This document shows, one piece after another, positions 1 to 41,036 of a stretch of DNA of 47,548 bases. Below the pieces are notes generated by a model. The model was not told the DNA's origin. It saw only the letters and a program-made list of their open reading frames with translations, and ran no database searches. The stretch is from assembly GCA_012145005.1 (NCBI GenBank), contig GCA_012145005.1_3029.1; one strand, given 5' to 3'. This DNA is from a phage. The position numbers were made by a program, and so were the translations under genes. Positions within the stretch are counted from its first letter, which is position 1. Each line of letters opens with the position of its first letter.

Positions 1-210
1 GGCAAGAAATATTTCTTTACTCTTATAGTTGACTCTGAAACAAAATATGAAAATAAACGTATTCTTAGTAAAAAGAATATCTTAACTATTGTTGATGATC
101 TTTTTGATAAATTCGTAGAAAATCCCAATTTTGAAAGCGATTTATTATTAGAAAAATTTGTTAAGGAATGTAGAGAATATGTCAAAACCATCACTATACC
201 TTCCAAGTAA
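1..210 (+). CDS. 3' end of a small membrane-protein paralog (gene continues upstream of window)
   Basis: Frame 1 is open from window edge to TAA 208-210 (69 codons, AT-rich); C-terminus EKFVKECREYVK resembles C-termini of the next three genes. Confidence 0.4.
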   Translation, partial: GKKYFFTLIVDSETKYENKRILSKKNILTIVDDLFDKFVENPNFESDLLLEKFVKECREYVKTITIPSK

Positions 211-571
211 ACCGTTGAAGTATGAATTAAAGCGTCAGATAATTTCTACTGATGTGTTAATAGGTCCTGTGGTAGTTGTATCATTTGTGATTCTGGTGAT
301 TGCTGGAATGGTTATAGACGTTATGACTGATATTGAATCTGGTGCAATATTTGGAGCAACACTAATTCTTCCGTTGGTAGTTCCGCTTTTATTAGTACCT
401 ATAAATTGGATAGGATATTGGTATCAAGGAAGACACTATCGTAAACGTGTACGTGATTGGAAAGCTCAGTGTAAAAAGATTAAAAAGGAACATCAGCTTA
501 AACTTGCTGCGCATGAATTTAATGAAATTATGAAATTTGTTAAGGAATCACGATGCAAAAGCCAAAACTAA
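179..571 (+). CDS. small two-TM membrane protein, tandem paralog family
   Basis: ORF track 158..571, start moved to ATG 179 (MSKPS); two hydrophobic helices; C-terminal FVKESRCK motif; start overlaps end of upstream paralog. Confidence 0.5.
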   Translation: MSKPSLYLPSKPLKYELKRQIISTDVLIGPVVVVSFVILVIAGMVIDVMTDIESGAIFGATLILPLVVPLLLVPINWIGYWYQGRHYRKRVRDWKAQCKKIKKEHQLKLAAHEFNEIMKFVKESRCKSQN

Positions 572-927
572 ATAAAGTCAAATATTCTCTTCCTGAGTCA
601 TTTTTAATTTTTGCTGTAGCGTTGGCTGCAGCTCTTGCGGGTAGTCTTTTTGGATTGTTAATTGACTGTCTTATTTTAAACATCCGTAGTAACGTCAGCG
701 GTATAATAGATATAATAGAAGTTTGGAGTGAACTTCATTATACTATAGCGATTTCATTATTTTCATTCTTTGGTACCATGTTATATTTTCATTATGATAA
801 TTTTAAAATAAATTGGCAAAGAAAAAAAGATTACAAAATACAATTAAAGGAATATAATAGCTACATGTCTTATATTGAAAAAGAATCAATGGAAGAGTTT
901 GTGAGTGATTGTAGGAAAATTAAATGA
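553..927 (+). CDS. small two-TM membrane protein, tandem paralog family
   Basis: ORF track; N-term MQKPK parallels MSKPS of previous gene; two hydrophobic segments; C-terminal FVSDCRKIK. Confidence 0.5.
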   Translation: MQKPKLNKVKYSLPESFLIFAVALAAALAGSLFGLLIDCLILNIRSNVSGIIDIIEVWSELHYTIAISLFSFFGTMLYFHYDNFKINWQRKKDYKIQLKEYNSYMSYIEKESMEEFVSDCRKIK

Positions 928-1408
928 TTTTAAAAACTCGCTGGTATGATTTAGATGATGGGGATGATGGCATTTCAGTTGATAGAGTTGACTGGAATGG
1001 TTGTTCCGAAGATATGAAAAATTTGTTGATTAGGGAGTTTAGAATGGGATATCAAGCAGCTAAGCCATCTATTATAACAGATGATAAATTCGTGTGTATT
1101 CATAATGGTCGCGCTAAGTTAACGAACGCTGATTGGTTCACAGATAAAATTATGATTCTGTGGTATATTATTAGTCTTCCTGTGACATCATTCGTATTTT
1201 ACTTTTTTATAAAAAATCCAATGGACAGAATAGGAGATTGGATTCTTTTAACCATACTTGTTAATATTTTTACTGCAGCAATATTATCTGGGATATGGTA
1301 CACGTTCATTGAAATGCCATGGCGACTACGCAGACAACAAAAGATTTTTGATGAAAAGAAATATACTCAAAATTTAAATAACTTTATCACTGAATGCAGG
1401 AAATTAAA

Positions 1409-1412
<4 letters not shown>
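924..1412 (+). CDS. two-TM membrane protein with N-terminal soluble domain, same paralog family
   Basis: ORF track; C-terminal FITECRKLK; ATGA overlap with previous gene. Confidence 0.5.
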
Positions 1413-2381
<969 letters not shown>

Positions 2382-2866: not shown

Positions 2867-3340
2867 ATGAAAACATATCAAGAATTTATCACTGAAGCAG
2901 CTATTAATTCTCAAATTATTGCTGAATCTTTTACTGATCTTTTGAAATTTAAAAAAGGTCAAAAAATTACTGCTGTATTGGATGATGGTACAGAAGTTGA
3001 GATGGATGTACAGGGATATAATTATGCAGTAGATGGAAAATTGTATAATAAATCTCATGCTAAATTTGATTCATTTGACGACTTTGTTAATGCAGTTGAA
3101 GATGAAAAAACTCGTCGATCCATTGCAACTGGTGATGCTAAGGTTCTTATGGCACATGGTCATGAACGCATTCGCGCTAAACAGAATAAAATGGGTGAAG
3201 ATAATTTTGCATTAGTTGGTTATCAATCTGGTAAACAAACTTATGGTTATCAGCGTACTGCTACCATGTATAACAAAAATGGTAAAATCGCTTTCGTGAA
3301 TAGTAAAGGTTCTGTTCAGTACGTCAAATCATTCAAATAA
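2867..3340 (+). CDS. internal head protein (IP family) with capsid-targeting sequence
   Basis: N-terminus MKTYQEFITEAA is the T4 internal-protein capsid targeting sequence; 157 aa does not match IPI/IPII/IPIII lengths. Confidence 0.75.
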   Translation: MKTYQEFITEAAINSQIIAESFTDLLKFKKGQKITAVLDDGTEVEMDVQGYNYAVDGKLYNKSHAKFDSFDDFVNAVEDEKTRRSIATGDAKVLMAHGHERIRAKQNKMGEDNFALVGYQSGKQTYGYQRTATMYNKNGKIAFVNSKGSVQYVKSFK

Positions 3341-40784: not shown

Positions 40785-41036
40785 ATGGAAACTTTAGTAG
40801 CAGGTTCAATTTTTATGGTTTTAGTTTCATGCGTGTTGGCTATTATTATATACATGCTTCCATGGTTCATCGCCTTGATGCGCGGGTCAAAATCGACAGT
40901 AGGAATCTTTTTCACATCTTTACTGTTTAACTGGTCAATTATTGGTTGGTTTATTACATTTATTTGGTCAATTGCGGGTGAAACTAAAAAATCTGTGCAG
41001 CAAAATCAAGTAATTATCATCAGAGAGAAGGAATGA
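40785..41036 (+). CDS. imm: superinfection immunity membrane protein Imm
   Basis: 83 aa, two TM helices, position between 43 and 42 as T4 imm. Confidence 0.75.
   Translation: METLVAGSIFMVLVSCVLAIIIYMLPWFIALMRGSKSTVGIFFTSLLFNWSIIGWFITFIWSIAGETKKSVQQNQVIIIREKE

Follow-up and report, generated by a model that had tools for sequence, protein, structure and literature searches.

Organization of the e.5-nudE region

The 47,548-nucleotide (nt) stretch of phage DNA analyzed here (contig GCA_012145005.1_3029.1 of GenBank assembly GCA_012145005.1; hereafter, the window) begins with a string of small overlapping genes, e.5, e.4, e.3, and e.2, the products of which share a C-terminal peptide of the form F[VI]xx[C/S]R, and it is this motif that is the subject of the present analysis. 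Phages RB51 and RB68 show 98.9% DNA identity to bases 1-1900 of the window phage, a Tequatrovirus, and ~500 Tequatrovirus genomes are >90% identical to the same bases. Bases 1-1412 comprise the 3' end of e.5 followed by complete e.4, e.3, and e.2, with nudE and the lysozyme gene e located downstream. The genes annotated in the matching stretch of RB51 are e.5, e.4, e.3, e.2, nudE, and e, with denV and Ip4 beyond them (RB51 ORF133-136 being e.2-e.5), which places the start of the window inside e.5. An initial interpretation made from the letters alone (hereafter, the sequence-only reading) had proposed a comparison with the T4 e.2-e.8 region, and the region is indeed that one. The features are listed below, with Shine-Dalgarno abbreviated as SD, transmembrane as TM, amino acids as aa, and AlphaFold2 as AF2.

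1-210, + strand: 3' end of e.5, 69 codons plus stop; translation identical to the RB51 e.5 C terminus.
157-174, + strand: e.5 motif, F-V-K-E-C-R (TTT GTT AAG GAA TGT AGA); AAGGAA doubles as the SD-like element of e.4.
179-571, + strand: e.4, 130 aa, ending KFVKESRCKSQN (phrog_2604); TM segments at ~31-49 and 57-75 and a 55-residue basic cytoplasmic tail are predicted from hydropathy and charge.
455-484, + strand: internal motif-like stretch of e.4, D-W-K-A-Q-C-K-K-I-K, similar to the e.3 and e.2 ends (xFVSDCRKIK; BLASTP).
536-553, + strand: degenerate e.4 motif, F-V-K-E-S-R followed by C-K; includes AAGGAA (SD-like) and the initial A of the e.3 ATG.
553-927, + strand: e.3, 124 aa, ending EFVSDCRKIK; predicted two-TM hairpin (phrog_2330, AF2 model).
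898-915, + strand: e.3 motif, F-V-S-D-C-R followed by K-I-K-stop; AGGAAA is SD-like for e.2, with an ATGA stop/start overlap.
924-1412, + strand: e.2, 162 aa, with a ~75-residue N-terminal domain, predicted TM segments at ~78-96 and 106-124, and a basic tail (phrog_2203, PF26896).
1383-1400, + strand: e.2 motif, F-I-T-E-C-R followed by K-L-K-stop; AGGAAA is SD-like for nudE, with an ATGA overlap.
1409-1849, + strand: nudE (e.1), Nudix hydrolase, final gene of the overlapped string (Pfam NUDIX, E=1.2e-13; phrog_1185).

The genes from e.6, upstream of e.5, to nudE form one uninterrupted same-strand string, with zero intergenic space from e.5 to nudE: e.5 and e.4 overlap by 32 nt, e.4 and e.3 by 19 nt, and both e.3/e.2 and e.2/nudE by 4 nt. 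Each start, including those reading MSKPS and MQKPK, overlaps the motif region of the preceding gene, as the sequence-only reading had it, and these tight overlaps, together with the SD-like sequences in the upstream tails, are compatible with translational coupling.

All of these proteins have catalogued relatives. The e.4 protein matched phrog_2604 (hmmscan E=2.4e-69 across 1-130 of 130), e.3 matched phrog_2330 (E=7.5e-63 across 1-122 of 122 in the PHROG profile search), e.2 matched phrog_2203, labeled 'membrane protein' (E=4.7e-79), and full-length RB51 e.5 matched phrog_2607 (E=2e-108), the four PHROGs being separate families of unknown function. Two newer Pfam families appear in the homolog tables, PF26873, precomputed for all close homologs of e.4, and PF26896, precomputed for all homologs of e.2, the gene carrying that name in RB51. 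The local Pfam and NCBIfam copies yielded no family match for e.2-e.5, and PDB sequence searches were likewise empty. Some NCBI records of e.3/e.4 homologs carry a sulfurtransferase/rhodanese label, for which there was no Pfam or NCBIfam match even at E<=1, and the name 'DNA primase' on one such record is similarly unsupported by Pfam or NCBIfam models. In T4, e.2-e.4 are annotated as 'conserved hypothetical, predicted membrane protein', and literature searches recovered no functional study of e.2-e.5. Thus, e.5, e.4, e.3, and e.2 are already catalogued, uncharacterized T4 open reading frames (ORFs), and the window brings no new gene.

The first of the four genes differs from the others. Frame 1 of bases 1-210 is stop-free, ends in ...EKFVKECREYVKTITIPSK*, and matches, residue for residue, the final 69 aa of RB51 e.5 (202 aa), which establishes it as genuine coding sequence, as the sequence-only reading had supposed. 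Full-length e.5 contains no hydrophobic segment (maximum KD19 1.12) and is predicted to be soluble in both RB51 and T4; its body is unrelated to e.4, e.3, and e.2 in BLASTP and ortholog comparisons, and its motif is placed 11 residues before the C terminus. Further upstream lies e.6 (L001:4967-5560; L001-L011 are the phage genome stretches fetched for comparison), which encodes a highly charged, apparently all-helical, soluble protein of 197 aa lacking both TM segments and the motif; it gave no match in Pfam and PDB searches and is kept beside e.5 in Tequatro-, Mosig-, and Jiaodavirus. The array of membrane proteins had been expected to continue upstream, where only e.5 and e.6 are found, and given that e.6 has no TM segments, the membrane-protein run stops short there. 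The sole intergenic gap of the e.6-nudE string, between e.6 and e.5 (L001:5563-5583), contains a G+C-rich hairpin with a UUCG-type tetraloop (GGGGCTTCGGCCCC), which, because it has no coding-strand T-run, seems better suited to a role in RNA stability or processing than to termination.

A strongly conserved motif at the C termini

All four genes encode F[VI]xx[C/S]R near the C terminus, with the strict motif present in e.5, e.3, and e.2, and a degenerate version in e.4 (FVKESRCK), where Ser replaces Cys and a Cys follows two residues on. The sequence-only reading had quoted four such C-terminal strings, from three complete genes and the 3' end of a fourth; all four are correct, and their similarity goes beyond chance. 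For the strict pattern, [FW][IV]xxCR, the per-position probability is ~7e-6, and we define the tail group as proteins with [FW][IV]xx[C]R and then basic residues within ~15 residues of the C terminus. Within the 47.5-kb window and 73 kb of T4 (1-50 kb and 146-169 kb), the strict pattern is confined to these genes. Across ~590 six-frame ORFs from the window and L001-L011, 26 of 26 strict matches are on the coding strand and at most 15 residues from the C terminus, and no internal or antisense occurrence was found in these genome stretches. The rarity of the pattern and its C-terminal, coding-strand confinement rule out a chance origin.

Among 22 non-redundant members, F/W and I/V are present in all 22, Cys in 18, and Arg in 21, the consensus being Phi-E-N-F-I-K-E-C-R-K. 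Carriers occur in at least seven Tevenvirinae genera (Tequatro-, Mosig-, Dhaka-, Mosuguk-, Jiaoda-, Karam-, and Moonvirus), with ends such as NFIKECRGK, RFITECRNLR, SFIKECRK, DFIKNCRR, NFIKSCRK, AWIRSCRK, EFITECRGK, NFISKCRTKR, and NFINSCRIKR outside Tequatrovirus. The carriers are small, and the majority have hydrophobic segments, usually two; five are soluble, with bodies unrelated to the hairpin proteins. A Mosigvirus-like contig retains the same e.6-e.5-e.4-e.3 block with the same tails, and there the e.2-like gene stands apart, beside nudE. In Jiaodavirus 5N, a soluble carrier of 102 aa ending in LFIAKCRAK (L007:4455-4763) is encoded downstream of nudE; the intergenic spacer behind it is a normal one and has an SD of its own, and thus the motif extends beyond the upstream overlapped string. 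The motif is absent from the nudE neighborhoods of one Slopekvirus and one Morganella phage. The internal motif-like stretch of e.4 is also conserved in e.4-like proteins, as EWKEQCK in that of Jiaodavirus and as EWKVQCA in that of Mosigvirus.

A search with the exact pattern ENFIxECRK returned Mosigvirus-like contigs and one internal match. The latter, in an IMG/VR contig of 148.7 kb (L015:2593-3342), lies inside an unrelated 249-aa protein (…ALENFIFECRKQE…) and is probably due to chance. Overall, the shared motif is confined to small early proteins of Tevenvirinae, and none of the databases queried records a tail motif shared among the four PHROG families.

The motif-encoding nucleotides vary synonymously. 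The Cys is encoded by TGT in nine cases and by TGC in nine, and the Arg by AGR codons in 14 cases and by CGN codons in seven; this synonymous variation indicates that selection acts on the protein. An SD-like AGGAAA or AAGGAA sits within the motif, 5-10 nt ahead of the next ATG, falling on K-E in e.5 and e.4 and on R-K in e.3 and e.2, and the distance from motif to stop ranges from 0 to 15 residues. Several observations thus point to the peptide being what is selected, with the SD probably representing a secondary use of some of the motif codons.

Membrane topology and structural models

Hydropathy analysis revealed two strong hydrophobic segments in e.4 and e.2, and one strong and one weaker segment in e.3. 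The loops between TM1 and TM2 are short and acidic or neutral, and the C-terminal tails carry a net charge of +1 to +10, so that, under the positive-inside rule, an N-in/C-in topology is predicted. The e.4, e.3, and e.2 proteins hence appear to be inner-membrane hairpins with a cytoplasmic tail.

The AF2 model of e.3 (predicted local distance difference test [pLDDT] score, 70.8) consists of helices 13-45 and 52-123, with TM1, a short loop, and a single helix running from TM2 to the C terminus, the tail being the most confident part. The e.2 model is poor (pLDDT 51) and has the same layout, its N-terminal domain being unusable; both models are of single chains. A Foldseek search of viral structures with the e.3 model recovered only uncharacterized small TM proteins. 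Across natural variants, entropy is 0.01-0.28 bits in the cytoplasmic N terminus, the proximal tail, and the motif, and 0.4-1.2 bits in the TM segments and loop, and in e.4 and e.2, no part varies less than the motif. The most conserved part of these proteins is accordingly the cytoplasmic tail, and the most variable part is the hairpin.

Relationships among the genes

The sequence-only reading envisaged serial duplication of at least four two-TM paralogs. Pairwise BLASTP comparisons among e.5, e.4, e.3, and e.2 were only marginal (best E=0.005), and shallow family profiles (Neff 1.2-1.4) gave hhalign P values of 0.002-0.06. With nudE as a synteny anchor, neighborhoods from ten other Straboviridae provided cross-genus orthologs and deeper profiles, and hhalign scores became significant only after these orthologs were added. 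The e.4-e.3 pair then reached 95.6% (P=1.2e-8) when aligned in full and still 93.4% (P=2.4e-7) once the motif had been trimmed, in a collinear alignment extending from MxKPxL through the tail; by this comparison, e.4 and e.3 are full-length paralogs that arose through tandem duplication. The e.2-e.3 match (P=1.4e-4 untrimmed) involves only TM2 and the tail and vanishes upon trimming (P=0.18), and trimmed e.2-e.4 profiles show no link (P=0.46). Thus, e.2, for which there are orthologs in Dhakavirus and Mosigvirus, has nothing in common with them beyond the motif and the hairpin-plus-tail architecture, and its origin by duplication is possible. The duplication proposal accordingly holds for e.4 and e.3, may hold for e.2, and fails for the body of e.5; likewise, the count of at least four two-TM paralogs cannot be maintained, given that e.5 is a 202-aa soluble protein with an unrelated body and that the demonstrable homology of e.2 is limited to TM2 and the tail.

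Among the motif-trimmed comparisons, only e4-e3 was significant, e2-PM2 was marginal (P=1.9e-4), and most other pairs were not significant, with trimmed family-family scores being above those of controls (Mann-Whitney U, 1.5e-8). None of 24 control ORFs, including the Imm homolog of the window, scored >25.2 against the family profiles, compared with 52 for e4-e3. An exhaustive HMMER search with an e.3+e.4 profile found nine proteins among 1.84 billion representatives, all of them close relatives or natural deletion forms, so the e.3/e.4 family proper is very narrow.

At the DNA level, junction similarity is significant between neighbors only, with e5/e4 resembling e4/e3 (including a 16-nt identity) and e3/e2 resembling e2/nudE (each p ~0.002). 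The first ~35 nt of e.2 (924-960) and of nudE (1409-1445) show 79% DNA similarity in different frames (GCTGGTATGATTTAGATGA vs GCTGGTATTATCTTTATGA), which suggests that the junction and the 5' end of nudE were copied when e.2 was placed there. Together with the internal motif copy of e.4, the similarity of neighboring junctions fits duplication units spanning gene junctions. Such duplication would explain why a soluble protein shares the tail, but not why the residues are maintained.

Expression context, dispensability, and natural variants

A strong sigma-70-type match, TTTACA-17-TATAAT, is located just upstream of e.6, and the late-promoter motif TATAAATA is found only at 1853 and 1866, ahead of lysozyme e; this promoter context suggests that the e.x genes are expressed early. 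Both TATAAATA motifs fall inside a hairpin, ATACCTCCTA...TAGGAGGTAT (window 1849-1892; ΔG -17.8 kcal/mol), that pairs the SD of lysozyme e, an arrangement corresponding to the classical one of T4, in which early read-through transcripts are unable to translate e.

The e.x genes are dispensable in the laboratory. In a genome-wide CRISPRi-ART knock-down study of T4, e.2-e.6 are scored 'Not Fit', with prior essentiality given as 'UNKNOWN' (PMC11879866). In T4 itself (L002:3517-4004, phage T4T), e.2 is frameshifted into e.2a (102 aa) and e.2b (36 aa), the gene being intact (162 aa) in the window phage and RB51. Phage vB_EcoM-UFV10 encodes a natural in-frame e.4::e.2 hybrid of 106 aa (L003:3684-4004; P0143) that lacks the 3' part of e.4, the whole of e.3, and the N-terminal domain of e.2, with the crossover at a 7-nt microhomology, TCCTGTG, at the start of TM1; the hairpin and tail are kept. 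In a metagenomic e.4 variant of 69 aa (P0194), both TM segments are precisely deleted, such that the conserved N terminus is fused to the conserved tail.

Comparison with known systems

T4 e.2-e.5 and RB51 ORF133-136 are the same genes as those in the window, in the same order and with the same overlaps, and, the split of T4 e.2 aside, there is nothing different in kind. T4 Imm and comparable early inner-membrane proteins of T-even phages, which act in superinfection immunity or exclusion, are likewise small, non-essential, two-TM proteins encoded in plastic accessory regions, and the window contains an Imm homolog (40785-41036). However, T4 Imm has no sequence relationship to the e.x proteins and lacks both the long basic tail and the FIxxCR tip; a kinship with Imm was rejected, as no control, the window homolog included, scored above 25.2 against any family profile.

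In two studies on T4-like genomes, intergenic promoter and stem-loop (PeSL) elements are described in connection with cassette shuffling in hyperplastic regions (PMC2839356, PMC4122927). The e.5-nudE region is similar in that its gene content varies widely between genera, its boundaries carry short conserved sequences, and natural in-frame deletions and fusions occur. Unlike PeSL, the e.x element is part of a coding sequence, closing the upstream gene at its 3' end, and its conservation is in the amino acids and not in the DNA.

The capsid targeting sequence (CTS) of T4 internal proteins is MKTYQEFIAE, and at window 2867-2896, an Ip4-like internal protein begins with MKTYQEFITE, which is of the capsid-targeting type. 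The CTS and the e.x motif have in common an amphipathic Phi-[QE]-[EN]-F-I-x-E core (YQEFITE in Ip4, compared with LNNFITE in e.2 and SEEFITE in Karamvirus). However, the CTS is N-terminal and cleaved after Glu, whereas the e.x motif is C-terminal, has this Glu in 10 of 22 members, and contains the Cys-Arg that is missing from the CTS. The likeness is a resemblance only and could reflect coincidence or a shared helix type.

Possible functions of the tail tip

The reading that we favor, and to which we would give an even chance of being right, is that these are early membrane-anchored accessory proteins in which the tip of the tail is a shared protein contact module. TM2 would extend into the cytoplasm as a basic, ~40-residue helix, with the motif forming its amphipathic tip, and the selected function would be carried by the tail rather than by the hairpin. 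The tip would most likely mediate a shared protein-protein contact, either with a common host or phage partner or by joining the tails into hetero-oligomers. During early infection, this might keep the variable anchors, along with soluble members such as e.5, on the cytoplasmic side of the membrane, and the function would be conditional, for example, in host takeover, exclusion, or counter-defense, rather than part of core replication.

Several points weigh against this view. The structural models, of moderate confidence for e.3 and poor for e.2, are single-chain, and early expression is deduced solely from promoter-like matches. The e.4-type proteins have S, V, or I in place of Cys, and thus the Cys is not universally required. 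Natural 97-aa truncations of e.3 lose the motif, and the e.x genes have no laboratory phenotype, so the function may be weak or redundant. Finally, an amphipathic tip could bind lipid rather than protein.

A bolder reading, which we advance tentatively, treats the tip as a portable short linear motif placed on unrelated early proteins, both hairpin and soluble. It might direct all of them to one host or phage partner or build a Cys-lined hetero-oligomeric bundle at the inner membrane, possibly one that binds metal or senses redox state. In its logic, such a targeting system would resemble the CTS.

We consider it rather unlikely that the tip instead is a membrane-targeting amphipathic helix that lies on the cytoplasmic leaflet and provides soluble carriers, such as e.5, with a peripheral tether, without binding protein. 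Such a role would account for the placement of hydrophobic residues on one helical face (-3, 0, +1, +4) with K/R next, for the replacement of Cys by hydrophobic V, I, or M in degenerate members, and for the soluble carriers being encoded beside membrane ones. However, the near-invariant Cys-Arg is more specific than lipid binding usually demands, and in the hairpin proteins, the tip ends a ~40-residue helix that is modeled as pointing away from the membrane.

It is also unlikely, in our estimation, that the motif has little function of its own and spread through duplication or recombination units spanning the junctions, each including a tail end, SD, ATG, and the first codons of the next gene. 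New copies would inherit the tail of their neighbor, and the shared sequence would favor further in-frame shuffling. The similarity of neighboring junction pairs, the two motif-like copies in e.4, the restriction of e.5 likeness to the tail, and the natural microhomology deletions that fuse paralogs in frame are all in line with this scenario. Nevertheless, the residues are kept across genera despite synonymous codon turnover, including AGR/CGN switches, and the motif varies less than any other part of e.4 and e.2; over such distances, a neutral passenger would have decayed at the protein level. Hitch-hiking accounts for the spread of the motif, not for its maintenance, and is compatible with the tip acting as a contact module.

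A holin, antiholin, or pinholin-like role, in which the e.x genes would be accessory to, or left over from, a lysis cassette that includes endolysin e, appears very improbable. Like class II holins, the e.x proteins are small and have two TM segments, a topology predicted to be N-in/C-in, and a strongly charged tail at the C terminus; the genes lie 0.5-1.7 kb upstream of lysozyme e, and one weak Foldseek match is labeled 'Holin' (E=4.4). Unlike class II holins, they have an early promoter context, and it is the tail tip that is conserved rather than the TM segments. A dedicated holin, t, exists in T4. Furthermore, the Pfam, PHROG, and NCBIfam searches gave no holin match, the Mosigvirus e.5-e.4-e.3 block is several kb away from e, and the knock-down data record no fitness effect (PMC11879866). 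The absence of a late promoter ahead of the genes, with an early-type match upstream instead, largely excludes the holin role.

Least probable of all, the apparent motif might be an RNA-level by-product, in which the SD and its spacing for coupled downstream genes happen to be translated in the frame of the upstream gene. In its favor, 14 of the 21 motif Arg codons are AGG/AGA, and the SD-like element (AGGAAA read as CRK, or AAGGAA as KE) lies 5-10 nt before the next ATG. Against it, the motif residues on which this element falls differ from gene to gene, F and I/V are invariant although an SD needs neither, seven members use CGN codons, the distance to the stop varies, the Jiaodavirus carrier downstream of nudE has behind it a spacer with its own SD, and other tightly packed early genes in 120 kb lack the motif. 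As a sole explanation, the SD by-product is largely excluded by codon usage.

Taken together, one strongly selected cytoplasmic tail tip links four T4 PHROG families with about a dozen others from further Tevenvirinae genera. The locus also illustrates cleanly how small membrane proteins in the plastic regions of phage genomes arise and are reshuffled through overlapping-gene junctions and microhomology. Should the tip prove to be a signal for docking or assembly, a first function for a whole block of T-even 'dark matter' genes would be within reach.

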